From Candidatus Kerfeldbacteria bacterium (GTDB taxonomy: Bacteria; Patescibacteriota; Patescibacteriia; UBA9570; XYC2-FULL-38-9), in contig JACPGJ010000002.1 of NCBI GenBank assembly GCA_016182555.1, forward strand, positions 48,040 through 112,039: 64,000 bases of DNA, written 5' to 3'. Position 1 is the first letter of the stretch. Every line of letters begins with the position of its first letter. The translations under genes and the position numbers were made by a program. Below, piece by piece: positions 1-43,993 of the stretch. The notes below the pieces were generated by a model, which saw only the letters and a program-made list of their open reading frames with translations, was not told where the DNA came from and ran no database searches.

Positions 1-2
1 TG

Positions 3-30
3 TGCTCAAGCTGCACGAGCAGATTTTTTA
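3..30 (+). terminator. Putative intrinsic terminator (hairpin TGCTC-N9-GAGCA followed by a T-run)
   Basis: Stem-loop tgctcaagctgcacgagca followed by gattttttag. A near-identical tail gcagattttttagtRactggRaa recurs at 2168-2200. Confidence 0.3.
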
Positions 31-190
31 GTAACTGGGAATACGAAACATTTTCCGATGCAATGGAAAAAAACAAAAATTGTGAACGCCAGGCAACTGA
101 TTATACTCATTATTCCCTTCACGCCAGTAGTTATTCAACATAGATAATTTTTTTATGGAAAAAGTTTCAAAAGAACTTGTTTTCCGCCGC

Positions 191-577
191 TCAGTTAAAT
201 GATAGCTCATTGCCCATTTTCAAAAATGGTATCTTTTTAAAATCTTTTGTATTATAAGTCATCAACGGAATCCCTAATTCAATTGCCGTAGCCGCAATTA
301 ACATGTCCATAGAGCCAATATTGTGCTTGCGTGCAAAAATCGCTGCACGCTCTGCAATCGCTGTATTAACAGGGATAATATTACATATTTCCAGAATAGC
401 TTTTATGGCTTTTTCTTCTTGACGAGTAATAGCTGAATATTGCAATAATTCGAATACCGTGATGGTTGAAACAAATGTGGTATATGGATCAAATTCAATG
501 ACTCGGTCACCATTCACGTGATAAATAATAACATTCGTATCAAGCAATATTTGTTGCATATTATTTTTTACGCCCAC
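191..577 (-). CDS. vapC: PIN-domain ribonuclease toxin (VapC family)
   Basis: 128 aa. N-terminal LLDTNVIIY acidic motif and C-terminal LIAATAIELGIPLMTYNTKDF are typical of the PIN fold. The start overlaps the upstream small ORF by 17 nt, as in TA operons. Confidence 0.8.
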   Translation of the reverse strand: MGVKNNMQQILLDTNVIIYHVNGDRVIEFDPYTTFVSTITVFELLQYSAITRQEEKAIKAILEICNIIPVNTAIAERAAIFARKHNIGSMDMLIAATAIELGIPLMTYNTKDFKKIPFLKMGNELSFN

Positions 578-812
578 GAAGAGTATTGAGTTTTTTTAAA
601 CGTTTATCCGCTGACGCTCGATATTGTTCAATGGATTTGAGCAACTCTTTTCCACGTTTTTTTGACATGATGCCTGCAGTTTTCTGCCACACAGATGTTT
701 TTTGCTGATGTTGCCCTGACCACGTACTTAATTCAATGCGAAGTTCCCCCAGTTCTTTTTGAACGGTTTTCTCCAAGGTGTTAATTTTTATTGCTATGCG
801 ACGAGTATTCAT
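561..812 (-). CDS. Putative antitoxin partner of VapC (small charged coiled-coil protein)
   Basis: 83-aa ORF immediately upstream of, and overlapping, the PIN gene. Lys/Arg/Glu-rich with no other recognisable domain. Homologous to the small ORF at 4111-4281. Confidence 0.55.
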   Translation of the reverse strand: MNTRRIAIKINTLEKTVQKELGELRIELSTWSGQHQQKTSVWQKTAGIMSKKRGKELLKSIEQYRASADKRLKKLNTLRGRKK

Positions 813-863
813 ACTATTTTTGCTTATCTTAGCTATAAAATGGTTATTAAAATAAAAGGTACA

Positions 864-898
864 TTATCAACATACCACACGCCACCTTTATTGACAAG
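864..898. promoter_or_regulatory. Conserved TA-operon upstream element, copy 1 (TTATCAACATACCACACGCCACCyyTATTGACAAG)
   Basis: Near-identical ~35-40-bp sequence at 864-898, 3053-3091 and 4338-4376, each just upstream of a minus-strand TA operon start. Contains TTGACAA/TTGTCAA, which reads as a -35 hexamer on both strands. Confidence 0.5.
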
Positions 899-1003
899 CA
901 ATTTAAATACGAAATTTAAATACGATTTCAGGCTTATCTCGCAGCGGACAAGACTATTTTTTGACAGCTTTTTTACTCCGTAGTATCTTAATATATAAGA
1001 TAT

Positions 1004-2128
1004 ATGAACACATCAATTCTACAACAATTGTACGAATATGCTAGAGAGCGTTGTTTGCAGGAATTTTTAACTCTTGGTTTAACGAAAAAAGATTTTACAC
1101 AGATAGAAAAACGTATACGCGGAGGCGTGCGAGAAGATATGGCGTTATTGGATCTGACTGATCGTATTTTACGCATAGGAAAAGCGCACGCAGAACCGGA
1201 ACACGGTATTGTCGGCATGGATAGCTTGGTGCGCGCATTTCAAATGATGACGAATTATACGCCTCGTGAAGGGGTTCCGGTGGAGGTGGCAACGATATTT
1301 TTAGAGTACATCACTTTTTTTAAACAAGAGGGTGGATATTCAAAACCAGATGATGTAGAGAAATTTGTTCGGTTGGTTTTGTCTGCACACCAATCCATTG
1401 ATGCGTTTGCGAAAAAACATCATGTTGATTCACGAATTTCCTCGATTGCACACCACGTGTTGCATTGGTATTTGCAAGAATCTCCACACCTGGCATGCCG
1501 TAAAACTCCAGAAAAATTGGCGATGATTGCATACGCCATAGTGCGTCGGTTTCAAGAAACGGCAACAGAAAAATATTTTTCTGATTATTCACCAGAAGAC
1601 TTGGTGCGTTGGGGCGGTTTAAAAAATGTGGCCTCTCTGACGTCAAGCACATCCGCAGCATTTCATGATGTGGTGTATGGAGTGTACGATATTGATCTGT
1701 TATTTGTCGACCCGGTGAATCGACCATCTGATTGGCGAGAACGACTCGTGAAGGTTGCTCCAGCATTACAAGAACGTTTTTCACAACCTGCCAGTTTTTT
1801 GGATGATCCAGTGTTACCAGCATTTCCTTTTGATGATATTGAAGAGGTGAAAGAGCGGATGATGAATACGCTCCAGAAATGCGTAACAAATAACGCATTG
1901 ACTCTAGAAAAATTGCAACAGTATGTTTGGGAAGCCAGTGACCATGAAGATCCAGAACAAGCTGCTCAAACATATATGAAGCTCTGTTTACCACATATAT
2001 CTCCACAGATAGAAGATGATACTACTCTCCGAGCTATTATGACTGCATTCCTAGATGCATGGAATATTTTTCCGCATCAACAATTACAAGGAAAATCGCC
2101 ACGCGACATGATGAATGAACAATTGTAG
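1004..2128 (+). CDS. Hypothetical protein (374 aa) embedded between two TA modules
   Basis: Long intact ORF with no motif I can assign. Followed by hairpin plus T-run at 2147-2178. Confidence 0.5.
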   Translation: MNTSILQQLYEYARERCLQEFLTLGLTKKDFTQIEKRIRGGVREDMALLDLTDRILRIGKAHAEPEHGIVGMDSLVRAFQMMTNYTPREGVPVEVATIFLEYITFFKQEGGYSKPDDVEKFVRLVLSAHQSIDAFAKKHHVDSRISSIAHHVLHWYLQESPHLACRKTPEKLAMIAYAIVRRFQETATEKYFSDYSPEDLVRWGGLKNVASLTSSTSAAFHDVVYGVYDIDLLFVDPVNRPSDWRERLVKVAPALQERFSQPASFLDDPVLPAFPFDDIEEVKERMMNTLQKCVTNNALTLEKLQQYVWEASDHEDPEQAAQTYMKLCLPHISPQIEDDTTLRAIMTAFLDAWNIFPHQQLQGKSPRDMMNEQL

Positions 2129-2146
2129 AACTATTTTTTTTGATCC

Positions 2147-2178
2147 TCTGCTTACTACGCGTTCTCTGCAGATTTTTT
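2147..2178 (+). terminator. Putative intrinsic terminator of the 1004-2128 gene
   Basis: TCTGC-N16-GCAGA followed by TTTTTT. The tail sequence is shared with positions 19-50. Confidence 0.3.
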
Positions 2179-2200
2179 AGTGACTGGAAAAAGGAACGAA

Positions 2201-2686
2201 TTATTTCATGGATTCAAGATATGTTTGAATCGTTTGTATATACCTTGGAAATAGTTTCACGCTATTTTGCAGAGCAGCATAAAATTGCATGCTGTTGAGG
2301 TCGTCATATTCGTGAACAAGAATATTTCTTGTTCCAATGCAGGGTTTCGTTGCTTCAGCGAGTTCATGGTCAATGACATTCATTTTTACCAATATGTCAA
2401 AAGAATCTGCATAGCTCGGTGGCGTTTTTTCTCCGGCAGCACGAATAATATGCAAATTGATATCAATACATCGATTAATCACCCGCTCAATCCATCTTTC
2501 CGCAACAGCACTTTTTATATCGTCGTTCATTATGGCTTCATACGAAGATTCTTGGAGTAATTTGTGAATCCGTTCTAGGTCTTCAAGAATGTAGGCGCAC
2601 TTCTGTTCAATAAGCTGCGTGTTCAAATTGGAGGAGTTTTGTTTTGACATATTCATGCGTCGCTTTAAATAATGGTTCAGCATCAA
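2201..2686 (-). CDS. hepT: HepT-like HEPN toxin (DUF86 family)
   Basis: 161 aa with the C-terminal R-x4-H-x-Y motif (RNILVHEYDDL) typical of HepT/DUF86 HEPN RNases. Overlaps the downstream end of the nucleotidyltransferase gene, as in MntA-HepT pairs. Confidence 0.7.
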   Translation of the reverse strand: MMLNHYLKRRMNMSKQNSSNLNTQLIEQKCAYILEDLERIHKLLQESSYEAIMNDDIKSAVAERWIERVINRCIDINLHIIRAAGEKTPPSYADSFDILVKMNVIDHELAEATKPCIGTRNILVHEYDDLNSMQFYAALQNSVKLFPRYIQTIQTYLESMK

Positions 2687-3044
2687 AATATTTCATGAGT
2701 AAACGAATATATTGTTTTTCATCATCGGTTTCAGTGCCAAAGAGTTTGATCCCTTCTGTGGCAATCAGGTAGCCAAGCAGTGGTGGTGCAGTGACCAAGT
2801 TCACACAATCAAATACACTCTCTGAAAGTCCGAGAATATTTTCTATTTTATCATCAAACCCTTGTAAGCTAAAGAATGTTCCACGCGGCATATCACTGCC
2901 ATCATGGCGAAGATAGGCAAGGTCAACATCGCTGTGTTCATTTGCGTCGCCACGCGCATGAGAACCAAACAAATACAACAATTTGAGGTCAAATTCTTTT
3001 GCAACCTCTGCCAGTTGTATTCTTTGTTTTTCAGTAATTTTCAT
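2607..3044 (-). CDS. mntA: MntA-like minimal nucleotidyltransferase antitoxin
   Basis: Motif LFGSHARGDANEHSDVDLAYL (GS-x9-DxD) of the Pol-beta/minimal NTase fold. The start was moved to the internal MKITEKQ methionine. The conserved upstream element lies just 5' of this start. Confidence 0.7.
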   Translation of the reverse strand: MKITEKQRIQLAEVAKEFDLKLLYLFGSHARGDANEHSDVDLAYLRHDGSDMPRGTFFSLQGFDDKIENILGLSESVFDCVNLVTAPPLLGYLIATEGIKLFGTETDDEKQYIRLLMKYFDAEPLFKATHEYVKTKLLQFEHAAY

Positions 3045-3052
3045 ATAGTACC

Positions 3053-3091
3053 TTATCAACATACCACACGAAACCCCTATTGACAAGAATC
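3053..3091. promoter_or_regulatory. Conserved TA-operon upstream element, copy 2
   Basis: ttatcaacataccacacgaaacccctattgacaagaatc, matching copies 1 and 3. Confidence 0.5.
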
Positions 3092-3809
3092 CCACGCATT
3101 GGCCATTTGATTAGGTTGTGTTATATTTCTCTTGGAATGGACACTCCTTGTGAGTCGTTTTTTTATGCAAATATATCAAACCCAAACTCACATCATCAAC
3201 CTATTACCAAAGAGGATCCCAATAGAAAAAATGAACTTTTGCATCGCTTCACAGGAGTAACGCCTAATAATATCCTATTTTCCGTTCAAATAAAAGAAGA
3301 TAAAAAAACGAATGAAAAACGGCTTATCTCTTGTTTTAGTGCTGAAAAATAAAAAGGCTTCCCGCCAGTTTGTGGTGTATAAACCACGGCCGAAAGTCTT
3401 TTCACATACTAGTATATAACACTCATATTTTTCGTCAAACTACTGATGCGGTGGTCTATTACCCAACGTGTGGAGTGGATGTGAGTCCGTCGTCCGGGTT
3501 TCCGAATAGCCGTATGATTTATGCCGAACAAGAAGCTGCGTGTGCTGAAGCGTTCAAGCGCCATCATTTCTTCCCGGCACTCTCGTTTTCCGCCGCTCCA
3601 ACTCGTTACCGTCCAACTTGATTTCACTAAAACAATTTTTCGGTAATCAATTTTTCTACTCGTATTGCTGTTGCTAAAGCCTGTTCTGCATCTGTCCACG
3701 TAAATTCAGGAAATTCTCCTGGATAACGCGTTGTGAAATAAAAATCCGTTTGCCGTTCCGTCACGATGACGGAATATGGATTGTGCATTCAATTCATCAT
3801 CTTCTGCTT

Positions 3810-3890
3810 TCAATAGCCATTCACGCACCGCAAAATGAGTAAATCAATATCGCTGTGTACGGATGGGCTGCCCCAAAATAGGTGAAGCAT
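3810..3890 (-). pseudogene. Nucleotidyltransferase (MntA-like) gene fragment
   Basis: The minus-strand ATG at 3890 translates to MLHLFWGSPSVHSDIDLLILRCVNGY then a stop. It retains the LFGS...HSD[IV]DL NTase signature seen in the intact MntA at 2607-3044. No full-length ORF remains. Confidence 0.4.
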
Positions 3891-3896
3891 ATATTT

Positions 3897-4131
3897 TTAT
3901 AACGCATCTTCCATCGATCCAAAAACGGTTAATCCAGGAATTTTACGAAAATCTTTCTTATTTTTTGTGATTAACGGTATATCCAAAATAAGCGCCGTTG
4001 CGGCAATCAGTAGGTCTGGTAGTTTTGTTTTGCGTGTTCTCCCAAGCATTGCTGCTCGTTCTGCAATAAGCGAATCCACAGAGATAATAGTGGTATAGGA
4101 AAGCCATTTTTTAATTGCCGCTATTTCTTTT
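3897..4131 (-). pseudogene. 5'-truncated PIN (VapC) gene remnant
   Basis: The translation ...KEIAAIKKWLSYTTIISVDSLIAERAAMLGRT...LIAATALILDIPLITKNKKDFRKIP aligns to the C-terminal ~75 residues of the VapC at 191-577. The N-terminal catalytic region and a proper start are missing. Confidence 0.55.
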
Positions 4132-4281
4132 TAAGATACCGCCCATTTTTTTCCATGCTTCTCCGGCTGCGCTTACGTGTTTTTTACTTTCTTGTAGTTC
4201 GATTTTTGCAATATTCAAACGTAGAAGCGTGAGCTCTTTTTCAATATGTTGAATGTGTGTGGTGAGTTGTTGTGTGGTCAT
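4111..4281 (-). CDS. Short VapB-like antitoxin homolog (56 aa) of the decayed TA module
   Basis: ATG at 4281, stop at 4111 (MTTQQLTTHIQHIEKELTLLRLNIAKIELQESKK...). Resembles the N-terminal two-thirds of the 561-812 product. Below the 60-aa cutoff of the ORF track. Confidence 0.45.
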   Translation of the reverse strand: MTTQQLTTHIQHIEKELTLLRLNIAKIELQESKKHVSAAGEAWKKMGGILKRNSGN

Positions 4282-4337
4282 AATATATTATTTACCCTTA
4301 TTTTAGCCATGAAATGGCCGTGGAAGGAGAATCCACT

Positions 4338-4393
4338 TTATCAACATACCACACGCCACCCCTATTGACAAGAATCAAAAAGCGTGCTAATAT
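4338..4393 (+). promoter_or_regulatory. Conserved TA upstream element, copy 3, carrying a canonical sigma70-type promoter (TTGACA-N17-TAATAT) on the + strand
   Basis: TTGACA at 4365-4370, 17-bp spacer, TAATAT at 4388-4393. The same -35/spacer/-10 block recurs at 20351-20379 upstream of the 20406 gene. Confidence 0.5.
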
Positions 4394-4646
4394 GTTCGGT
4401 TCTTTACAATCGAGTTCGCTATTGAAGTGTTTGAGGGAGCTAGGACCCCCAAGAGCATATACACACCCAAGTACGTAAGTAAAAAGGGCATATTGAAAGA
4501 AATCTTTCCACCATTCGTGACTCTACCGCTTATGCAAAGCGTCGCCGAAAGGCACGATGCGCACAAACGGTTAGTGAAGAATGATGGATCCTAGCAGATT
4601 TCCGATGATATGCCTTTTTTACTGCCTTGTATGGTCGTTGGCTCCC

Positions 4647-4671
4647 TGTCATGGTGAGCCTGTCGAACCAT
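4647..4671. repeat. Direct repeat tgtcatggtgagcctgtcgaaccat (copy 1), hairpin-forming
   Basis: Second copy at 4770-4794. Contains the inverted repeat TCATGGT...ACCATGA. Lies at the low-GC/high-GC junction. Confidence 0.5.
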
Positions 4672-4769
4672 AAAAGGTAGCAGTACATTTACAACACATT
4701 AGGTTTGAATAGAAGTATTTTTTCCGAGTCAGAGAGAATGAGATTATTTTGTCATGCCGACTGCCCACT

Positions 4770-4794
4770 TGTCATGGTGAGCCTGTCGAACCAT
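4770..4794. repeat. Direct repeat tgtcatggtgagcctgtcgaaccat (copy 2)
   Basis: Identical 25-mer ~125 bp downstream of copy 1. Immediately precedes the GC-rich segment. Confidence 0.5.
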
Positions 4795-4974
4795 GAGCAC
4801 AACAAATGATTTTACTCTCTCTGGCTTGGAATTATCTACGTCGGAGAACCCCGGGGTCACCCGAAGGTCGAAAGACCAGAAGGAGGCCGCGTGGTCTCTC
4901 CGGGGAGTGTCTTTGTTGTCCGCAACCCATGGCGTCGCGACGTGTCTTACGTGCGGCGCCACTTTGGAGGTTCT

Positions 4975-5856
4975 ATGAATCGGTTTTTCGTCCTCGCCAC
5001 CGCGCTGGTGGCCGTGATGTTTTCGTCGACGGCCGTCGCGACGGCCGTACCTTCCAATCTTCTTGGTGAGGTGCAGAGGTCTGCACTCACCAAGGTCTGG
5101 GAGGTTGGACCCGGCTCCCTGCCGCCAGAGGGTGCCGAGTGCCAACCGGGAGAAATCCCGGTGGTGCGAGGCACCGCCGACGAGATCCCGGGCGGCGACA
5201 CCGCCCAGGTGCAGCTAGATTCGCGGCGGCTGATGGCCGTCGCTCCCGCCGGTTGGGACGGCTCCTGGGGGTGGATCGCCGGGACGACGACGTCCGGCGA
5301 CAGCGCCGGCGTAGTGGGATGTGCGCCGCGGGGCGCCTTCCCAGCCGCCACGGCGGCGCCCTCGGCCGCCGCCCCCCAGTCACCATACCCGGCCATGCCC
5401 GGCCTTGAGCTCCCCAATGGGGTGAGCCTGAATGCTGAGCTGGACCCCGAGCAGGTTGCGACACTGACGTCGCAGCTGCTCTGCCTCCAGGCGGGGCGGG
5501 GTAACGACTGCCTCGGCGCGTACGCCGGGGGGTCCAACCTGGGGAAGTTACTGGAGAACGGCGCCCCGTTCTCCCTCAGGATGCCGGGGCTCGACCTCGT
5601 CGTCCGCCCCGTGGCCGGCAAACGGAGGGCCGCCCCCGTCGAAGAGGGGAACGGAGAGGCCACCCGCAGGACCAGGTGGTTCTGCGGAGACCACCCGGTG
5701 GTCTGCCTGGCGGCGACCACGATCGTCGTGGTGGGCGGAGTCGCGCTCACCTCGGTGGTCATGGGAAACCCCGTCGTCGATATCGGCGGCGGGAGTGCCG
5801 GTGGTAGCGCCTCCGCAGGCGCCACCGCTGGGTTTACGGTGATGCGCTTTCGGTAG
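4975..5856 (+). CDS. Secreted/membrane-anchored hypothetical protein encoded in the GC-rich island
   Basis: Internal start MNRFFVLATALVAVMFSSTAVATA is signal-peptide-like. Ala/Gly/Pro-rich with a C-terminal hydrophobic stretch. The opposite-strand ORFs in this region look like GC-driven artefacts. Confidence 0.4.
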   Translation: MNRFFVLATALVAVMFSSTAVATAVPSNLLGEVQRSALTKVWEVGPGSLPPEGAECQPGEIPVVRGTADEIPGGDTAQVQLDSRRLMAVAPAGWDGSWGWIAGTTTSGDSAGVVGCAPRGAFPAATAAPSAAAPQSPYPAMPGLELPNGVSLNAELDPEQVATLTSQLLCLQAGRGNDCLGAYAGGSNLGKLLENGAPFSLRMPGLDLVVRPVAGKRRAAPVEEGNGEATRRTRWFCGDHPVVCLAATTIVVVGGVALTSVVMGNPVVDIGGGSAGGSASAGATAGFTVMRFR

Positions 5857-6316
5857 GCGCGCCACCAACTTCGACCGTCGCGTGAGGGTCAGCATCGGCT
5901 GAACCCGAACGCGCATCGCTGCTCTCCGCGGCGGCCGACTTCGAATTCAAACTTGTCGTGTTTCGGGAGGGACGCAACGACGCTGTTCATTCGCTGCGTC
6001 TCTCCCCCTTCTTTCCTTTCTCGGAATCATTTCAGAGAAAGAAAAGTGGGAAAACATTTCTCACGTGCACTTTACAAATTTTTTCACTCTTTATTCAACT
6101 CAAGCCAGGAGTATTCGGATGATCACACAGGAAGACCATAGATGATTCGAGTAATCCTGGCTTGTAGATGCGGCGCCAGGAGGTCCGGGGGGTATGCCCA
6201 CGCTGAAAAGCGCGAAGTGTGCCCTCCAGTGGGGCCTCCCGAGGATCGTTGTTAAACCGAGAGTACGGCCGCCACTGTTCCAATCATGGACAATGGGCGG
6301 CCGTAGAGGAGTCAAA

Positions 6317-7672
6317 ATGAAAAAATGTTTTTGCTGGCTCGCCATCGCAATGATGGTGATGGTCAGCACCACTGCATGCCGCATTCGCGGCGGCAGTGTT
6401 TACGATGACTCAGGGCGGGAGACAGCGGATTCCGCCCTGGATGGAGACAACGACGGCGTCCCCTCGGGCGCCGGTGACTGCGACGACAACGACGCGTCGG
6501 TTTATCCCGGCGCGACCGAGCTGTGCGACGGCGTCGACAACAACTGCGACGGCGAGGTCGACGAGGGGTGTTCGGCTGAAACGCCGACCCCCGAAGCAGA
6601 AACCCCGACCCCGGAACCGACGCCCCCCCTTGACGGGGATGGCGACGGCTACTCCGAGGTCGGTGGCGACTGCGACGACACCAGCTCGGCCGTCCATCCG
6701 GGCGCGGTCGAGGGCTGCGACAGCTTCGACAGCGACTGCGATGGCGCGGTAGATGAGGGGTGTGAGGAGGAGAATCCCACACCCGACGATACGCCGGAGC
6801 CGACCGAAACCCCCGAGCCAGACGACCTGGACGGAGACGGCTACACCGAGGTCGGTGGCGACTGCGATGACACTGATGCGACGGTCTACCCGGGGGCAGA
6901 AGAGCTGTGCAATGATGCAACGGATTCGGACTGTGACGGTAATTCGTCTGAGTCAGAATCTGGATGCGTCGTGTACAGCGATGACGCGGACGGAGATGGG
7001 TATTGTGAGAATTCGCCGTGTGTCGTTTCGACGATGCCGGCGGGTGACTGCGATGACACCGACGCCCGCACTTATCCCGGGGCCGCGGAGACCTGCGACG
7101 GCCTGGACAACGATTGCGATGGGGATCGCGACGACATCGCCGAAGGAACGGGTAGCCTCTACTACCAGGACTCCGACGGCGATGGGTATGGAACTGACTC
7201 TGAGGTTATTTCGGCCTGCAGCCGTCCCGCTGGCTATGCGGTTAGCGACGACGACTGCAACGACGGCAACGCGTCAATCCACCCGGGTGCCACCGAGACC
7301 TGCAACAACGTGGACGACGATTGCGACGGCGCCGTGGAAGACGACACCGTCTGCAACCCGGACTGCGCCGCCACCGCCTTCTGGTGGGGCGCAGATTTCA
7401 ACCTCGTGACCTGGGCGAGCGAGGGTCAGCACCTGATTTCCAATCAGGATGACCCGGACTCGTCCAATACGGTCGAGTCGTCGACCCCCTGGACGTACCA
7501 GGGGCAACTCAACATCTGCGCCGGCGCGACCAGCTCGGCCGACGAGGTTATGGCTGCCGTAAACATCGGCAGCAACACCTGCGTCGCCTGGGACACGGCG
7601 AACGCATATGACGACGATGGGGACGGTTTCTGCGTCCCTATCAAAAAGGCTGAGATCGATCACACTCCGTGA
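6317..7672 (+). CDS. Lipoprotein with tandem MopE-type putative metal-binding Cys/Asp-rich repeats
   Basis: Start MKKCFCWLAIAMMVMVSTTAC with a lipobox-like TAC. At least 7 repeats of DGDGY...GGDCDD-x5-PGA-x-E-x-CDG-x-DNDCDG-xx-DEGC, the 'putative metal-binding motif' repeat described for MopE and many myxobacterial proteins. Very high GC. Confidence 0.6.
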   Translation: MKKCFCWLAIAMMVMVSTTACRIRGGSVYDDSGRETADSALDGDNDGVPSGAGDCDDNDASVYPGATELCDGVDNNCDGEVDEGCSAETPTPEAETPTPEPTPPLDGDGDGYSEVGGDCDDTSSAVHPGAVEGCDSFDSDCDGAVDEGCEEENPTPDDTPEPTETPEPDDLDGDGYTEVGGDCDDTDATVYPGAEELCNDATDSDCDGNSSESESGCVVYSDDADGDGYCENSPCVVSTMPAGDCDDTDARTYPGAAETCDGLDNDCDGDRDDIAEGTGSLYYQDSDGDGYGTDSEVISACSRPAGYAVSDDDCNDGNASIHPGATETCNNVDDDCDGAVEDDTVCNPDCAATAFWWGADFNLVTWASEGQHLISNQDDPDSSNTVESSTPWTYQGQLNICAGATSSADEVMAAVNIGSNTCVAWDTANAYDDDGDGFCVPIKKAEIDHTP

Positions 7673-7684
7673 TTTGATCTCCTC

Positions 7685-7710
7685 TGCGCGGTTCACCACT
7701 GCCGCGCGGA
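7685..7710. repeat. GC-rich hairpin ctgcgcggttcaccactgccgcgcgg (copy 1), with the shared flank recurring at 10235-10330
   Basis: The 32-nt stretch ctctgcgcggttcaccactgccgcgcggaagt at 7682-7713 is identical to 10235-10266. Both are followed by cgctcctt...tcttcttttttttt. Confidence 0.5.
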
Positions 7711-8167
7711 AGTTAACACAAGTGGAGGTTCCCGGAGCGCCGCTGCGAAAAGCGATCGCGAGCCGGTGGAGGAGGGAACTGACGTACGGCCGCAAGGCCA
7801 CGAGACCCAAGCCGCGCAAGCGGAACGAAGAGGACCCATGTCCTCCAATCGTCGAGTGCAACACGCGCTCCTTGGGTCTTCTTTTTTTTATTCAAATTTT
7901 TCTATAAATACTTGACGAAAGCAAGGTATACAAGTACAGTGCTCGTAGAATATTGTTTTTTATGTTAAAATATAGACATGATCAATAAATACACCTATCG
8001 ACTATTTAGAGTTCCCACCTTTAAACGGGGCATGGCCAGCTTGATTGATATTACCGGCAAGTTGAACGAAATTCGATTTGATAAAAGTGGCTCTGAAGCT
8101 GACTATAAGGCTTTATCGAGTGACTGGAAAGCCGTGGGGGAAGATTTACAGAATGCTATGAATACTT

Positions 8168-8623: not shown

Positions 8624-8660
8624 ACTTTATGGAAAGCGGTTTTTTTCCAAAATTTGTACA

Positions 8661-8733
8661 TTGACCCAGTACACAACTTTGATATACTAAACACAGTTGG
8701 ACACTACTCACCGTTGCGGAGCAGTGTTTTTTT
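8661..8733 (+). promoter_or_regulatory. Promoter (TTGACC-N16-TATACT) plus 5' leader hairpin/T7 attenuator-like structure upstream of Bro-N gene 1
   Basis: -35 at 8661-8666 and -10 at 8683-8688, then CACTACTC-N9-GAGCAGTG followed by TTTTTTT at 8703-8733. The ~95-bp module is ~90% identical to 10323-10401. Confidence 0.5.
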
Positions 8734-8765
8734 ACTTGATTCAAAAATTAAATTACAATAAAAGT

Positions 8766-9647
8766 ATGAGCAAACCACAAGACTCTAAATCAATCGTTTT
8801 ATTTGAAGACGTACCCGTCCGTCGTATTTGGGTAGAGCAGGAAGAAAAATGGTATTTTGCTATCGTGGATATCATTAAAATACTCACAGATAGCAAAGAT
8901 CCGCAAGGTTATATTAAAGATATGCGCCGTCGTGATTCTGTATTATCTCAAGGGTGGGGGCAAATTGCCACCCCCCTTTTGGTCGAAACCAGAGGAGGTA
9001 AGCAAAAGGTTAATTGTGCCAATGTTCAAGGGGTTTTGCGTATTATTCAAAGTATCCCATCCAAAAAAGCTGAACCGTTTAAACAGTGGTTAGCTAAGGT
9101 GGGCTATGAGCGGCTCCAAGAAACGGTTGACCCAGAACGGGCGTTAAACCGTGCACGCAAGAATTGGAAAGAATTAGGGCGATCTGAAAAGTGGATTGAG
9201 CAACGAATGCGCGGTCAAGAAACCCGTAATAAACTCACGGACTACTGGCAGACCCACGGGGTAAACGAACAGCCTGAATATGCCCAGTTAACAAATATTA
9301 TTCATAAGGAATGGAGTGGGTTGAGTGTTGGTGAGCATAAGAAACTCAAAAAGTTGAAACAGGAAAATTTACGAGATAATATGACCGAAGCTGAACTGAT
9401 CTTTACCGCTCTTGCCGAATTTTCTACTCGTCAGATTGCAAACCATAATCGATCAGAAGGTTTTGTTGAAAATGCTCAATCGGCTAAGCGAGGCGGAAAA
9501 ATTTCTGCTCATGCTCGTCAACAGCTTGAACAAGAGTCAGGAGAAAAAGTAGTCAGTGCTGAAAATTTTTTACCACCTATATCATTAAGCTCAGCGTTAA
9601 AAAAATCAAAAAACGCAAAGAAGCTGAACTCTCGAAACCGAAAATGA
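8766..9647 (+). CDS. Bro-N/KilA-N-like DNA-binding domain protein (phage antirepressor-like), paralog 1
   Basis: N-terminal ...VRRIWVEQEEKWYFAIVDIIKILTDS...QGVLRIIQSIPSKKAEPFKQWLAKVGYERLQE is a Bro-N-like fold signature. Start set at the internal MSKPQDSK. About 60% identical to the 10435-11286 product. Confidence 0.5.
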   Translation: MSKPQDSKSIVLFEDVPVRRIWVEQEEKWYFAIVDIIKILTDSKDPQGYIKDMRRRDSVLSQGWGQIATPLLVETRGGKQKVNCANVQGVLRIIQSIPSKKAEPFKQWLAKVGYERLQETVDPERALNRARKNWKELGRSEKWIEQRMRGQETRNKLTDYWQTHGVNEQPEYAQLTNIIHKEWSGLSVGEHKKLKKLKQENLRDNMTEAELIFTALAEFSTRQIANHNRSEGFVENAQSAKRGGKISAHARQQLEQESGEKVVSAENFLPPISLSSALKKSKNAKKLNSRNRK

Positions 9648-10059: not shown

Positions 10060-10237
10060 TTGCGTCAAATAAATAAAATAAGCCCTGTGTAGCTAGGCCC
10101 TTGCGGGCGAACGGCATGAAGCCGACTTTCACATACACAGGACTTACTTATACGTATACAATAGAGATAGAGCAAATATTCAGGAATATCAAACTTACTT
10201 TTTAAAACTGAAAAATAGGCTTTCGTAACAATGGCCT

Positions 10238-10263
10238 CTGCGCGGTTCACCACTGCCGCGCGG
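10238..10263. repeat. GC-rich hairpin ctgcgcggttcaccactgccgcgcgg (copy 2)
   Basis: Identical to 7685-7710. A local GC-rich patch in otherwise AT-rich DNA. Confidence 0.5.
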
Positions 10264-10328
10264 AAGTCCTCCAATCGCCCCCGTGCACACGCGCTCCTTC
10301 TCGTCTTCTTTTTTTTCAAAATTTGTAC

Positions 10329-10401
10329 ATTGACGCTTCATACAAGTTTGATATACTAAACACAGTTGGACACTACTCACCTTTGCGGAGCAGTGTTTTT
10401 T
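10329..10401 (+). promoter_or_regulatory. Promoter (TTGACG-N16-TATACT) plus leader hairpin/T7 upstream of Bro-N gene 2
   Basis: Same module as 8661-8733. Hairpin CACTACTC...GAGCAGTG at 10370-10394, then T7. Confidence 0.5.
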
Positions 10402-10434
10402 TATGTGAAAATGAATTACTATTAAGAAAGGACT

Positions 10435-11286
10435 ATGCCAACACAAACCGTGCGTACACCAGAAACAACACAAATTGTCTTATTCAAAGGCAAGCAAATC
10501 CGGAAAACCATCCATAATAACGAATGGTGGTTTTCGGTGGTCGATGTAGTAGAAGCATTGACTGACAGCGTGAATGCTAATGATTATTGGTATAAAATGA
10601 AGGTTCGAGTACAGGATGAGGAAAAAATTGAACTATCGACAATTTGTCGACAGTTGAAATTGGTAGCTCCAGATGGAAAAATGCGTGAAACCGACTGTGC
10701 AAATACCGAAGGCATTTTCCGCATCATTCAATCTATTCCTTCTCCAAAAGCCGAGCCATTTAAGCGCTGGTTGGCGAAAGTCGGCTATGAGCGTGTACAG
10801 GAAATTGAAAATCCGGAGTTAGCGACGAAACGTACACGTATGCTCTACAAACTGAAAGGGTATAGTGATGGGTGGATAGAAAAACGAATGCGAGGTATTG
10901 CGATTCGTGAAGAGCTGACCGATGAATGGGATAAACGCGGGGCAAAAGAAGAACAAGATTATGAAATTTTGACTGCTGAAATTTCCAAAGCGACGTTTGG
11001 CGTTACACCGAAACAATACAAAAAATTGAAGGGTATCAAGCGAGAGAATTTACGCGATCACATGGAAGAATTAGAACTGATTTTTAATATGCTTGGAGAA
11101 AAAGCAACAACAGAAATTCACCAGAGTGAAAATTCGCAAGGTATGACGAAATTGAAAGCAGATGCTAAGGCCGGTGGAGATATTGCTGGTGGCGCGAGGA
11201 AAAAATTAGAAAAACGGCTTGGTCGTTCAATCGTTTCAAAAAAGAATTTTCTCAAAAACACCGAAGAGCGCAAGAAATTGAAATAA
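10435..11286 (+). CDS. Bro-N/KilA-N-like DNA-binding domain protein, paralog 2
   Basis: ...IRKTIHNNEWWFSVVDVVEALTDS...EGIFRIIQSIPSPKAEPFKRWLAKVGYERVQE, the same architecture as 8766-9647. Confidence 0.5.
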   Translation: MPTQTVRTPETTQIVLFKGKQIRKTIHNNEWWFSVVDVVEALTDSVNANDYWYKMKVRVQDEEKIELSTICRQLKLVAPDGKMRETDCANTEGIFRIIQSIPSPKAEPFKRWLAKVGYERVQEIENPELATKRTRMLYKLKGYSDGWIEKRMRGIAIREELTDEWDKRGAKEEQDYEILTAEISKATFGVTPKQYKKLKGIKRENLRDHMEELELIFNMLGEKATTEIHQSENSQGMTKLKADAKAGGDIAGGARKKLEKRLGRSIVSKKNFLKNTEERKKLK

Positions 11287-20275: not shown

Positions 20276-20350
20276 ATTTTCCTTACATTAGCAATTTTTT
20301 ATAGGACAAACTGGTCTTTTTTTTGTGGGTTCTTTGGCCCATTTTACCTA

Positions 20351-20379
20351 TTGACAAAAATCAAAAGTTGTGCTAAGTT
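20351..20379 (+). promoter_or_regulatory. Promoter TTGACA-N17-TAAGTT, a re-use of the 4365-4393 promoter block
   Basis: cctattgacaaaaatcaaaagttgtgctaagtt versus cctattgacaagaatcaaaaagcgtgctaatat at 4361-4393. Confidence 0.5.
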
Positions 20380-20405
20380 CTAGGGTCTTTTAAAACAGAC
20401 ACCCT

Positions 20406-23400
20406 ATGAAAATAGCTATGATTGGCCAAAAAGGAATACCCGCAACCTGGGGTGGCGTCGAACAACACGTCGACCATCTTAGCCAGGAATTGCGTGCGCT
20501 CGGGCACGAAATTTTTGTCTATTCTCGGGAGTATTATGTGAGTCCAAGCTTTGTTGCTGCCTATAATAAACAGCAGGCTGGTATTCAGGTGATCTCTTTA
20601 CCCACCATTCAATCCAAAAATATTGATACGATTGTCCATACGTTTCTAGCGACCATGCACGCCATTCTTTTTGTGAAGCCAGATATCTATCATTTCCATA
20701 GCGTTGGACCGTCGTTATTATCGTGGTTGCCTCGGGTGTTGCGCCCACGAGCGAAAGTGATTGTGACATTTCATTGCGAAGATCGATTGCACCAAAAATG
20801 GGGGCGTTTTGCGCGTTTTATGCTTACGCTTGGTGAATGGACGGCTACACACTTTCCACACCAAACGATTACCGTTTCCAAAACATTGACAGCCTATGCA
20901 TTGGAGAAATACGGGTGCACCGGAGTATATATCCCAAACGGCGTAGATATTGTGGCGCCATTGGCTCCGGCACAAATTACTGAACAGTGGGGTTTAACGC
21001 AAGGAAATTATATGTTGACCGTTGCGCGTTTAGTTCGCCATAAAGGAGTGCATCATTTAATTGAAGCGTTCAAGAAAACAACCACGGATAAAAAATTAGT
21101 GATCGTTGGTGGTTCAACGCATACAGATGAATACGTTCAATATTTGCACAAACTCGCTGGCGATGACCGTCGTATTATCTTCACTGGTTTTCAACGTGGC
21201 ACGGTATTAAATGAATTATTTGCAAATGCCTATCTGTATATACAGCCGTCTGAATCAGAAGGCTTGTCTGTAGCCGTATTGGAAGCTGCCAGTTTTGCTC
21301 GCCCGATTGTGGCTAGTGATATTCCAGCCAATGCAGAGATTGTCGCAGGTAACGGATTGCTCTTCCGTAACATGGATACGACAGATCTACAGAAGCAGCT
21401 CCTATTTGGCTTAGAACACACAGCGCAGATGAGAGAGGCTGGTAAGCAATTGCAGCGCCATATTCAGAAAGAGTATAATTGGCAGGCTATTGCGAAAGAG
21501 GTGAATACCGTATATAATCATTTATCTATAAATAAGCAAAAAATTATGTCGTATGCTATCCCAGTTCGTCATATGAAACGCATCATTCCATTTCTATTCT
21601 TCGCCGTGGTGAGTATTGGATTCTTTATGGTGTCTACACGTGCGGTTTCCGCCGCAACATTTACCGTGAATGGTACGGTAGATGATTATGATAATAGTCC
21701 TGCTGATGAAGAATGTATGGGGGAAAAAACCAACCTGTGTACATTGCGTGCGGCTATTATGGAAGCAAATGAACTTCCTGGAGAAGATACAGTATATCTT
21801 CCTGCTGGTACCTATCTGTTGGGTATTCCTGGTGCAGATGAAGACTCTGGATTTATGGGAGACTTGGATATAAAAGATGAGTTGGTGATTATCGGTGATG
21901 GTTCAGGAACAACCGTCATTCAACCACAAGAGATGTCCGGATTTGATGATCGTGTGTTTGACATATTAGAAACCGGTCAGTTGACCCTTCAGGGTATTAT
22001 GGTGACGGGTATGGCATATACGAATGATTATTGTAGTGGAATGATTATTCAGAATTATAGCGAGGCACCGTTAGTGATCGATGATGTGCGTGTGGAAAAT
22101 GTGACCTGTGAAGCACCAACGATATATGGTGGATTGATTGCCAGTTGGAGTGATGCCCAGATGACCATATCCAATAGCGTTTTTGATCAAGCGACGTTAA
22201 TTATTTCTGGTAATTATGCCGGAGTCATTGGTGGAGGAATATTGACGTATGGAAATGTACAATTGAATAATACGACCATTAGTAATATTTCCGTTCAAGG
22301 TTCCGGAACTCAGTTAACCTATGTGTATGGGCTTGGTGTGTATGCGAGTACCGTAGAGATGGATCATTCACGTATTGTCAATAACACGGCTTCTACGGAT
22401 GGATATGGAGAAATGCGTGGTGCTGGTATGATGACCTCTGTCGGAACTATTCAGCATAGTACCGTGAATGGTAATAGTTTTTCTGCCAATGAAGGATTGG
22501 TTGGTGGTGCTGGTATTCATGGTTATGAATTTACGCTTCTGAATAGTACGATCACTGATAATAGCGCTTTGGTAACGAATGGAGAAAGTTATGGTGCAGG
22601 TATCATGACTGAAGGCGGTGGTCGTGTAACGATTATGCATAGCACGATCAGTAATAATGTTTCTCATCAATCCGGTAGTCAAATTTATAATTTTTCTTCC
22701 ACTCCGATCATGATGAGCGGTTCTATTGTCAACAGCGAAGAATCGGTGGAGAATTGTGATATCTATGATTCCACGATATCCGTTACGGATTCTGGGGGGT
22801 ATAACATAGATAACGGAAATAGTTGCGGATTTTCTGAAAGCACTGACCAGGTGAATACCGACCCATTGCTGGATGAGAATGGTTTGGCAGATAACGGTGG
22901 TTCTACACTCACGATTGCATTGCAGGCTGCTTCTCCAGCAATCAATGTTGTTCCAGAAACGGCGTGTCTTAATTTGGTTGATCAACGTGACGTCGCGCGA
23001 GATTCACTCTGTGATGTTGGTGCATATGAATATGTGGATACGTCTGCTCCGGTGGTCACGGTGATTGGTTCGAATGCAATGGATATAGAGTGTCGAGTGA
23101 CATACACAGATTTAGGAGCGACAGCAACAGATGATGTTGATGGTGATTTGACGAACACGATTAGCACAACGAATCCTGTGGATGTGAATACCACTGGTGC
23201 ATATACAGTCAATTATGCTGTTGTAGATTTTGCGAATAATGCTCATTCCGCTACACGAACCGTGAACGTTCTTGATACCCTTGCTCCAAGCATGGTCATG
23301 AACGGCGCATCTTCTGTCGAAATTGCGCAAGGTGAAACGTATGTCGATAGTGGTGTAACAGCAACAGATGGTTGTGACAGTACGGTGGAGGTGACGACAA

Positions 23401-24116
23401 CGAATGCCGTGAATACGGCGGTGGCTGGTACGTACACCGTTACGTATACGGCGACGGATGATTCTGGCAATAGTAGTGATACACTGAATCGTACGGTGGT
23501 TGTGGTAGCGGCTGCTGTGACAGAAACTCCAGATAATAATGGAGAAGACAATGGAGGAGATGATGTTGAGGAGGTCGTGGATGAAACACCTGATGCAGAA
23601 GAAGAGGTGCGTTCGATCATTTCTGTTTCACCGACAGAGGATGGCACACTCGTGATTACTTATGAAGATGGAAGCAGTGCAGTTATTACGCCTTTTGATG
23701 GCAATGCGGATTTCCAGTATGTCATGAGCGGCGTTGCAGATCGTGTTATTGTCACGAATGGCAAGTTCGTGCGTTTATATGTGCATGGTGAACGTGTTGC
23801 GCAACAGCGTATCAATAAGAAAAAGCCAAAATTTGTGCAATTGACACTCGCACAGATGTTTGATGGTTATGAATCCATTGTCCTATTGACCAAGCGACAG
23901 GGAAAATTGAAGACCACGGCAGTACGCGTCACCAGTGATAATGATTTTACGAAACACAAACGTCGTGTACAGCAATTAACGGATGGACAATCTTCAAAAG
24001 AACTTGGGTTGACAGTGAAAGAAGATAAGCATCGCATTCTCGTGAGTATTGGTAAAAAAGAAATGATATACAAACTGACGAAAAAAGGAATATTGAAAGA
24101 GATTGTAAACGAATAA
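20406..24116 (+). CDS. 1236-codon ORF: GT4 glycosyltransferase (aa 1-~375) read through, without a stop, into a secreted CSLREA/parallel-beta-helix protein with DUF5011-type Ig-like domains (internal start ATG 21546)
   Basis: N-terminal GT4 motifs (...ESEGLSVAVLEAASFARPIVASD). At aa 381 a typical signal peptide MSYAIPVRHMKRIIPFLFFAVVSIGFFMVSTRAVSAA, then CTLRAAIMEAN (CSLREA-like), beta-helix repeats, ...DQRDVARDSLCDVGAYEY, and two P-x-I-x-L-x-G...Y-x-D-x-G-A-x-A-x-D Ig-like modules. Confidence 0.6.
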   Translation: MKIAMIGQKGIPATWGGVEQHVDHLSQELRALGHEIFVYSREYYVSPSFVAAYNKQQAGIQVISLPTIQSKNIDTIVHTFLATMHAILFVKPDIYHFHSVGPSLLSWLPRVLRPRAKVIVTFHCEDRLHQKWGRFARFMLTLGEWTATHFPHQTITVSKTLTAYALEKYGCTGVYIPNGVDIVAPLAPAQITEQWGLTQGNYMLTVARLVRHKGVHHLIEAFKKTTTDKKLVIVGGSTHTDEYVQYLHKLAGDDRRIIFTGFQRGTVLNELFANAYLYIQPSESEGLSVAVLEAASFARPIVASDIPANAEIVAGNGLLFRNMDTTDLQKQLLFGLEHTAQMREAGKQLQRHIQKEYNWQAIAKEVNTVYNHLSINKQKIMSYAIPVRHMKRIIPFLFFAVVSIGFFMVSTRAVSAATFTVNGTVDDYDNSPADEECMGEKTNLCTLRAAIMEANELPGEDTVYLPAGTYLLGIPGADEDSGFMGDLDIKDELVIIGDGSGTTVIQPQEMSGFDDRVFDILETGQLTLQGIMVTGMAYTNDYCSGMIIQNYSEAPLVIDDVRVENVTCEAPTIYGGLIASWSDAQMTISNSVFDQATLIISGNYAGVIGGGILTYGNVQLNNTTISNISVQGSGTQLTYVYGLGVYASTVEMDHSRIVNNTASTDGYGEMRGAGMMTSVGTIQHSTVNGNSFSANEGLVGGAGIHGYEFTLLNSTITDNSALVTNGESYGAGIMTEGGGRVTIMHSTISNNVSHQSGSQIYNFSSTPIMMSGSIVNSEESVENCDIYDSTISVTDSGGYNIDNGNSCGFSESTDQVNTDPLLDENGLADNGGSTLTIALQAASPAINVVPETACLNLVDQRDVARDSLCDVGAYEYVDTSAPVVTVIGSNAMDIECRVTYTDLGATATDDVDGDLTNTISTTNPVDVNTTGAYTVNYAVVDFANNAHSATRTVNVLDTLAPSMVMNGASSVEIAQGETYVDSGVTATDGCDSTVEVTTTNAVNTAVAGTYTVTYTATDDSGNSSDTLNRTVVVVAAAVTETPDNNGEDNGGDDVEEVVDETPDAEEEVRSIISVSPTEDGTLVITYEDGSSAVITPFDGNADFQYVMSGVADRVIVTNGKFVRLYVHGERVAQQRINKKKPKFVQLTLAQMFDGYESIVLLTKRQGKLKTTAVRVTSDNDFTKHKRRVQQLTDGQSSKELGLTVKEDKHRILVSIGKKEMIYKLTKKGILKEIVNE

Positions 24117-34418: not shown

Positions 34419-34443
34419 TATTATTTCATTTGGCCGTAACGGC

Positions 34444-34495
34444 AATTCTGGAGAGAGCACGTATTTGCGAAGCAAAACGAAGCTCTCGAAGAATT
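34444..34495. repeat. Palindromic intergenic repeat, copy B
   Basis: Core identical to copy A (reverse-complemented). The flanks ccgtaacggc / ggcgtgaagg also match copy A. Confidence 0.75.
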
Positions 34496-34529
34496 GGCGT
34501 GAAGGACCAAATGTAGAGATGTATCATCC

Positions 34530-36245: not shown

Positions 36246-36274
36246 CAGGTAAATGTTTTTTGAGCTGTAGAGAA

Positions 36275-36326
36275 AATTCTGGAGAGAGCACGTATTTGCG
36301 AAGCAAAACGAAGCTCTCGAAGAATT
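36275..36326. repeat. Palindromic intergenic repeat, copy C (between convergent genes)
   Basis: Extended palindrome gagaaaattctgg...ccagaattttctc. Confidence 0.75.
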
Positions 36327-36349
36327 TTCTCGAAAGGCTAAAAAGAGGA

Positions 36350-43880: not shown

Positions 43881-43920
43881 AAAATATATTAATGGAAAAG
43901 TATTTGAGAGCCAGAGCGGC

Positions 43921-43972
43921 AATTCCGGAGAGAGCACGTATTTGCGAAGCAAAACGAAGCTCTCGAGGAATT
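43921..43972. repeat. Palindromic intergenic repeat, copy D
   Basis: aattccggagagagcacgtatttgcgaagcaaaacgaagctctcgaggaatt. Its flanks cggc / gtcgctacgg partly mirror copy A. Confidence 0.7.
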
Positions 43973-43993
43973 GTCGCTACGGCTCTCTACAGC

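Follow-up and report, generated by a model that had tools for sequence, protein, structure and literature searches.

The stretch of DNA analysed here, hereafter the window, comprises 64,000 nucleotides (64 kb) of contig JACPGJ010000002.1 (assembly GCA_016182555.1) from a Candidatus Kerfeldbacteria bacterium, a member of the Candidate Phyla Radiation (CPR, Patescibacteria). Close to its left end lies an island rich in toxin-antitoxin (TA) genes, in which three TA operons, all read leftward on the minus strand, are each preceded by one copy of a short repeat of about 40 bp; this repeat, termed the element below, is the subject of the analysis. Operon 1 (191–812, minus strand) encodes a VapB-like antitoxin of 83 aa (561–812) and a PIN/VapC toxin (191–559, in an open reading frame (ORF) that extends to 577; Pfam match of the PIN domain at 191–577, 1.3e-16). 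Operon 2 (2201–3044, minus strand) is a type VII system with an MntA nucleotidyltransferase antitoxin (2607–3044) and a HepT RNase toxin (2201–2650), both of which exceed the NCBIfam cut-offs for this type. Operon 3 (3897–4281, minus strand) is decayed and consists of a truncated VapB' of 56 aa (4111–4281) and a PIN remnant in an open frame from approx. 4127 to 3897, of which only the C-terminal part (PIN match at 3897–4079) is left, the N-terminal part being gone. The identities that the original prediction had assigned to these operons (VapBC, MntA-HepT and a decayed VapB-VapC') were confirmed by the Pfam and NCBIfam matches and by the C-terminal PIN remnant. VapB and VapB' of operons 1 and 3 share 27% identity and their PIN proteins 54%, and we regard these two operons, on the similarity of their products, as old paralogues. 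Operon 2 belongs to different Pfam and NCBIfam families and shares with them the element alone.

The 39-mer consensus of the element was matched at 864–902 (3 mismatches), 3053–3091 (2 mismatches) and 4338–4376 (no mismatch), hereafter copies 1, 2 and 3, and was never matched in 100 dinucleotide-preserving shuffles, which bears out the claim of a common element of about 40 bp in front of the three TA operons. A repeat finder delimited the same family as 42 nt (861–902, 3050–3091 and 4335–4376). The 35-nt cores are identical to one another at 33/35, 33/35 and 31/35 positions, copy 3 is an exact match to the consensus, and the whole family lies within 3.5 kb. Copies 1 and 2 are reproduced exactly in an independent assembly (Logan, run SRR12113422; contigs L002 and L003), which spans window positions 1 to approximately 3400 and a further 9.4 kb to the left; copy 3 is known from the window alone. 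Together with this left flank (L003), the scannable part of the genome amounts to approximately 73 kb, and the motif search across it found no copies besides those at the three TA loci. The search for degenerate copies (nhmmer --max, with a profile built from the three copies) likewise revealed none, the next best match having E = 0.84.

In wider collections, the pattern ATCAACATACCACAC-N9-ATTGACA had no match in either the GTDB species representatives or IMG/VR, and a single one in the JGI metagenomes, situated within a coding region of an AT-rich contig and taken as chance. The pattern ACCYYTATTGACAAGAATC was matched 13 times in the GTDB representatives, against approximately 17 occurrences expected by chance according to our own estimate; the left halves of these matches were random throughout (2–9/20), and one of them lies inside the histidyl-tRNA synthetase gene (hisS) of a member of Komeilibacteria. 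As far as the scanned collections show, the element appears to be specific to this lineage.

Read on the minus strand, the element has the layout GATTC-TTGTCA-ATAGGGGTGGCG-TGTGG-TATGTT-GATAA-nGT, and a consensus scan identified TTGTCA-17-TATGTT in 3/3 copies, with a TG before the -10 hexamer in every case. In copy 1 (861–902, minus strand), the -35 hexamer TTGTCA is located at 897–892, followed by the 17-nt spacer with TGTGG and by the -10 hexamer TATGTT at 874–869; the corresponding positions are 3086–3081 and 3063–3058 in copy 2 (3050–3091, minus strand), and 4371–4366 and 4348–4343 in copy 3 (4335–4376, minus strand). The -35 hexamer agrees with the consensus at 5/6 positions, and the -10 hexamer has T1, A2 and T6. 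All three copies thus have the sequence features of sigma-70-type promoters (-35 with at least 4/6 identity to TTGACA; -10 with A2 and T6; the two 16–18 nt apart) and also those of extended -10 promoters (TG one base upstream of -10). The TRTG '-16 region' is the extended -10 of Gram-positive promoters, and we take TGTGG-TATGTT of the element to be a match to it. Transcription is predicted to start at approximately 862–864 for copy 1, 50 nt before the ATG of the VapB-like antitoxin (812), at approximately 3051–3052 for copy 2, about 7 nt before the ATG of MntA (3044), and at approximately 4336–4337 for copy 3, 55 nt before the ATG of VapB' (4281). The repeat itself, which had been placed 10–60 nt upstream of the operons, ends 52, 9 and 57 nt before these three minus-strand start codons, so that the minus-strand promoter proposed at the outset has the right place and the right orientation for all three TA operons.

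The limits of the conserved stretch are also informative: it extends from about 5 nt upstream of -35 to about 3 nt past GATAA, i.e. to about the predicted start, and outside it copies 2 and 3 agree no better than random sequence (10/40 positions on the left, 13/40 on the right). Between copies 1 and 3, whose genes are paralogous, similarity extends to 88 nt at 76%; here the leaders of operons 1 and 3 are identical at 34/53 positions, versus 33/35 for the core (Fisher p = 0.0009). Within the 35-nt core, four bases vary, in the form of two dinucleotide changes that both fall within the spacer upstream of TGTGG, and the -35 hexamer, the extended -10, the -10 hexamer and the discriminator are invariant among the copies. 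Variation restricted to the spacer is the pattern to be expected of a working promoter.

We consider it probable, at roughly 60%, that the element is a sigma-70-type core promoter that has been reused within a decaying TA island. It would represent a complete core promoter cassette, from about -40 to +3, with the -35 hexamer TTGTCA, a 17-nt spacer, the TGTGG extended -10 and the -10 hexamer TATGTT, and would direct minus-strand, leftward transcription of three neighbouring operons in an accessory island rich in TA genes. The paralogous VapB-like/PIN operons 1 and 3 would have kept, or re-homogenised, the same promoter, and the MntA/HepT operon would have either gained the promoter alone or been inserted directly behind an existing copy, with the homology ending about 9 nt before its ATG. 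The original prediction had offered a portable promoter, or cassette shuffling, as one of its options, and the abrupt limits of homology around copy 2 agree with it. Another promoter, divergent from the first, would overlap with it at copy 3 through the palindromic -35 (TTGACAA/TTGTCAA). Both the start of RNA polymerase at the element and the mode by which the copies spread are what we infer from this anatomy.

Several observations weigh against the promoter reading. Thirteen of the 17 spacer positions are invariant, which is beyond what a promoter alone needs, and promoter-like matches of such quality are common (24 found versus 14.3 expected in 5 kb). With the start predicted for copy 2, the leader would be about 7 nt long and would lack part of the AAGG Shine-Dalgarno-like sequence, and MntA would consequently need either short-leader translation or a start further upstream. 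The absence of further copies covers only about 73 kb of the genome, and no related genome was found to carry the element in the pattern scans of GTDB representatives, JGI metagenomes and IMG/VR. Finally, operon 3 is dead and yet has the consensus copy, so selection for TA expression is not the whole reason for the conservation; a perfect copy before a dead operon points to a recent spread, to gene conversion or to another role, e.g. as part of the overlapping plus-strand promoter. As regards the leader of MntA, it should be noted that canonical promoters of a similar style, several of them with TGn, precede other genes in this DNA (961–989, 8662, 10331, 20351, and the Phd and AbiEii operons of L003), and that short or Shine-Dalgarno-less leaders follow at 961–989 (ATG at 1004), at 20351–20379 (ATG at 20406) and in the operons of Phd and of the AbiEii antitoxin. 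Since such leaders occur behind other consensus promoters here, a 7-nt MntA leader is not out of character; it weakens the promoter reading but does not refute it.

The island contains gene debris, namely a C-terminal remnant of PIN_3 at 2150–2200, which resembles the 3' end of the intact PIN_3 at window positions 1–60, and a frameshifted HEPN remnant at 3627–3828, and it is turning over by duplication and decay. The plus strand may contain a small gene at 3099–3352 (ATG at 3139, 71 aa, no family match), behind a TTGGCC-17-TGT-TATATT promoter situated 8 nt from copy 2; with this candidate gene, all three copies of the element are located in divergent intergenic regions. The gene of 374 aa between copies 1 and 2 was compared, as a potential paralogue, with the ORF at 10435, with a negative result. 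Directly upstream of the -35 hexamer of copy 1 (in the minus-strand sense), a 13-mer is repeated in tandem at 901–926 (AATTTAAATACGA x2), and this duplication could be an AT-rich tract similar to an UP element, or a binding site.

The richness of the island in duplicated and decayed pieces (the PIN_3 3'-end remnant, the HEPN remnant and the truncated operon 3), the clustering of the copies within 3.5 kb and the position of copy 3 before a dead operon would all suit a neutral explanation, in which the copies are functionless leftovers of a recent segmental duplication or of gene conversion. We regard it as rather improbable: operons 1 and 3, at 27% and 54% protein identity and 64% identity of their leaders, are too diverged for a core of 94% identity to be a passive remnant, and a conversion tract of exactly -40 to +3 would have been needed twice, once into an unrelated operon without flanking homology. 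Moreover, both the boundaries and the pattern of substitutions coincide with the anatomy of a promoter.

Copy 3 differs from the others in carrying a promoter on the plus strand as well (module at 4361–4413: TTGACA at 4365–4370, a 17-nt spacer, TGC, and TAATAT at 4388–4393). This module and the TA element overlap in the 16-nt block CCTATTGACAAGAATC, in which the palindrome TTGACAA/TTGTCAA provides a -35 on both strands. A sibling of the plus-strand promoter (module at 20347–20399, plus strand; TTGACA-17-TGC-TAAGTT at 20351–20379) is located 26 nt before the gene of a GT4 glycosyltransferase/Ig-like surface protein (20406–24116, 1236 aa). The window has three perfect TTGACA-N16-18-TAnnnT sites, two of which, at 4365 and 20351, are homologous: 4359–4393 and 20345–20379 are identical at 27/35 positions, and at 18/26 of those outside the promoter definition, a score reached nowhere else in the window, and the siblings agree at 39/53 positions over approximately -41 to +12. 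The -35 block of 15–16 nt recurs at a fourth site, 20348–20362 (3 matches at ≤2 mismatches versus 0.54 expected). In copies 1 and 2 there is no plus-strand -10 at the right distance, and the plus-strand reading TTGACA-N17-TAATAT of the original prediction is therefore confined to copy 3. It had also been claimed that the TA core is reused before the GT4 gene; the similarity at 20351–20379 is real, but its partner is the plus-strand promoter of copy 3 and not the TA promoter. Because only the 16-nt CCTATTGACAAGAATC is shared, on the opposite strand, the TA promoter is not the driver of the GT4 gene. Judging from these alignments, we distinguish two putative promoter modules, one on the minus strand before the TA operons (three copies) and one on the plus strand (two copies), and the occurrence of a plus-strand sibling 16 kb away therefore suggests that short promoter modules are copied around in this genome.

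The region behind the plus-strand promoter, 4394–4630, is predicted to fold on either strand much more stably than its shuffles (z = -4.8 and -5.6). The source of this signal is a single-copy imperfect hairpin of 146 nt (4478–4623, plus strand; -57.3 kcal/mol, z = -7.9), which has GAAA at its apex and a T-run behind it; the hairpin folds equally well on the minus strand, where it is also followed by a T-run, and its strand is ambiguous. A transcript of about 225 nt from the promoter at 4365 could plausibly have this hairpin as its body and terminator, and we treat this RNA as a candidate only. The small RNA that had been proposed for 4394–4625 thus has in its favour a consensus extended -10 promoter, the 146-nt hairpin and the T-run. 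On the other side, a search of the whole window against Rfam 15 was negative at gathering scores, as was one of 1–5000 at E ≤1, and no homologue was found, blastn of 4380–4880 against plasmids included. The ORFs in 4394–4630 gave no match to a protein family.

The surplus of conservation noted above, in that 13/17 spacer positions are invariant, as are the bases next to the hexamers, could be accounted for if the element were also an operator, through which one trans-acting regulator co-controls the heterologous TA modules, the GT4 gene and the candidate RNA. A common regulator had been the other option of the original prediction. Binding might occur, e.g., via the half-sites TTATCAACA and TATTGACAA or via the shared CCTATTGACAAGAATC block, and would add a layer to the promoter rather than replace it. 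The conservation of the element far above that of the adjacent paralogous leader, the perfect state of copy 3 in front of a dead operon and the recurrence of the -35 block at 20348–20362 are in line with this possibility, which we nevertheless consider unlikely. The two half-sites form a weak inverted repeat (7/9 complementary, with a 16-nt gap), there is no convincing direct repeat, no regulator gene was recognised in the island, and the positions that vary among the copies are precisely those at which an ordinary promoter can afford changes. For the VapB-like antitoxins, neither Pfam nor NCBIfam gave a match, and hence no DNA-binding family was recognised; among 1.84 billion representatives, these proteins retrieved themselves and one weak relative. 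MntA, for which protein searches returned no relative but itself, acts enzymatically, by adenylylation (PMC8138530), and the nucleotidyltransferase profile covers residues 15–124 of its 145, leaving no room for a DNA-binding domain.

Comparison with other TA operons also argues against a common operator. The single relative of VapC, 55% identical (L004), belongs to a homologous VapB/VapC operon, and the element is absent from the 96 nt of upstream DNA available there. In the adjacent TA operons Phd/PIN_3 and DUF6922/AbiEii the element is absent as well, and their promoters are unrelated. A better candidate for an operon-specific antitoxin operator may be a block within the leaders of operons 1 and 3 (consensus CCATTTyATrGCTAArATAAG), present as CCATTTTATAGCTAAGATAAG at 823–843 (minus strand) and, in the counterpart at 4297–4317 (minus strand), containing the palindrome GCCAT-TTC-ATGGC. 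The most far-reaching version of the operator idea holds that a dedicated regulator co-ordinates type II VapBC-like and type VII MntA/HepT modules in a CPR bacterium with a reduced genome, with copy 3 as a bidirectional switch to a new RNA of about 225 nt and with the -35 block linking in the GT4 gene; we would give it a low chance.

The arrangement of the copies, one between each successive pair of same-strand TA modules, is reminiscent of cassette arrays, and together with the abrupt end of the copy 2 homology beside a gene and the minus-strand GTTGATA, two mismatches away from the attC core GTTRRRY, it raises the question of a recombination or cassette-boundary site (of the type of an integron attC or a tyrosine-recombinase core) at which TA cassettes are exchanged. 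This is very improbable. As single-stranded DNA, the element is unfolded (-0.2 to -2.4 kcal/mol, z from +0.6 to -1.0) and behaves like its shuffles; GTTRRRY is unmatched and the inverse core absent, and the weak arms, with 16 nt between them, are too far apart for a tyrosine recombinase. No integrase Pfam family was found among the genes called on the Logan contig, which covers approximately 9.4 kb left of the window, and the 374-aa gene between copies 1 and 2 lies on the other strand. An integron-like attC site was rejected on the unfolded DNA, the two-mismatch core and the lack of a recognised integrase nearby. The classes of REP element, MITE and insertion sequence (IS) terminal repeat were ruled out as well, given three copies in 3.5 kb and none elsewhere in 73 kb, no hairpin and no partner repeat. 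TTATCAACA is one mismatch from TTATCCACA, and a DnaA box or replication origin was dismissed on the unchanged GC skew and gene orientation left of the window.

Alternatively, the element might be conserved as a transcribed sequence, either as an RNA motif in the minus-strand 5' leaders or as a plus-strand coding segment, LSTYHT(P/K)PLLT. A hairpin that pairs the element with the start codon of MntA is predicted for copy 2 (z = -2.9), and in the plus frame copies 1 and 3 differ by a synonymous CC-to-TT change. Both variants are hardly credible to us: no structure is common to the three copies or leaders, Rfam gave no match, and no credible promoter is present further upstream. The plus-strand ORFs are unrelated outside the element, run antisense to the antitoxin starts and have no start codon at copy 2, where there is a radical Pro-to-Lys change as well; we dismissed the coding fragment as accidental on its unrelated flanks, its antisense position and this substitution. 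A reused core promoter remains our preferred explanation.

Other repeats and a GC-rich island were observed in the neighbourhood. In the DNA that separates the TA island from the GC-rich one, a sequence of 25 nt, TGTCATGGTGAGCCTGTCGAACCAT, is perfectly repeated at 4647–4671 and 4770–4794, 123 nt apart, each copy inside its own longer inverted repeat (4622–4680 and 4722–4831); it resembles REP or MITE sequences. The GC-rich island itself spans 3 kb (4860–7860) at 58–70% GC, compared with approximately 42% GC of the contig, and encodes a signal-peptide ORF without a family match (4975–5856) and a protein with five Cu-binding_MopE repeats (6194–7672). It was either acquired horizontally from a high-GC organism or results from an assembly mis-join; look-ups in Logan/ENA produced no record of its proteins or of those on the copy 3 side. 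The Logan assembly of SRR12113422 stops at approximately 3400, between copies 2 and 3 of the element, which suggests either population heterogeneity or a repeat-induced break in the segment of copy 3 and the GC-rich island. At 7681–7880 and 10235–10300, there is a native element of about 70 nt ending in a T-run, with a GC-rich hairpin (CTGCGCGG...CCGCGCGG) and 5' ends identical at 33/33 positions; its 7681 copy, at the right edge of the GC-rich island, seems to have been split by GC-rich DNA of about 150 nt.

Two further families were noted. A repeat of 100 nt (8640–8739 and 10309–10408, 90% identical) consists of a consensus promoter (TTGACC or TTGACG, 16-nt spacer, TGA, TATACT) with its leader and precedes the ORFs 8697–9647 and 10435–11286, which look paralogous, and is thus another duplicated promoter region. 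An element of 79 nt is found three times, at 34433–34511, 36264–36342 and 43910–43988, with 82–85% identity and in all cases at gene ends; its hairpin (-42 kcal/mol, z = -8.2) marks a terminator-like or REP-like family, more prominent than the TA motif.

Transcription signals of CPR bacteria are, to our knowledge, almost unstudied. If the promoter reading is true, the TA island would be a clean, small case of promoter reuse in the CPR, in which the boundary of homology falls at the transcription start and two promoter modules are fused via one palindromic -35. It would also mean that a TA pair that was shuffled or acquired horizontally could be expressed without delay on arriving behind a promoter already in place, and the 42-bp element would be a ready candidate promoter for CPR genetics. 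No new kind of biology would be involved; promoters that are shared or mobile are already known, and so are TA islands containing decayed paralogues.

Among known systems, integron attC sites (e.g. the VCR of Vibrio) resemble the element in being short repeats between successive TA modules; unlike them, it shows no single-strand fold and no core or inverse core, has no recognised integrase nearby and lies on the 5' (promoter) side of the operons. With the autoregulatory operators of type II TA systems it has in common a position at TA promoters, whereas a single element here serves non-homologous antitoxins, including the enzyme MntA, has no clear palindrome and is accompanied by antitoxins that match no RHH, AbrB, HTH or Phd family; the leader palindrome of operons 1 and 3 looks more operator-like. 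Copy 3 is comparable to back-to-back divergent promoters, as its TTGACAA/TTGTCAA would supply a -35 on both strands, with a -10 located 17 nt away on each side. Since only one of the three copies has the plus-strand -10, the repeat as such is not bidirectional.

In layout, the element resembles extended -10 promoters of the sigma-70/SigA type, to which it conforms in TTGTCA, the 17-nt spacer, TGTGG-TATGTT and its location 7–55 nt before start codons; its activity is predicted from sequence, and, unlike what the consensus requires, the spacer and flanking bases are conserved among its copies as well. As to the reuse, the closest phenomenon described so far is that of putative mobile promoters (PMPs), defined as homologous upstream DNA before non-homologous genes in one genome, most families having two members, with an operational minimum of 50 nt and ≥80% identity (PMC3488235, Matus-Garcia, Nijveen and van Passel 2012). 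The element differs from these in that the shared unit of 39–42 nt is below the 50-nt threshold, two of the three operons behind it are distantly paralogous to each other, and the copies, instead of being dispersed, are found within 3.5 kb of one TA island. It resembles PMPs in being near-identical non-coding DNA (>90% identity) upstream of non-homologous genes, in the small size of the family and in its proposed role, a promoter reused separately from its gene. Since it is shorter than the PMP definition demands, we do not file the element as a formal member, and propose instead that it works like a mobile promoter.

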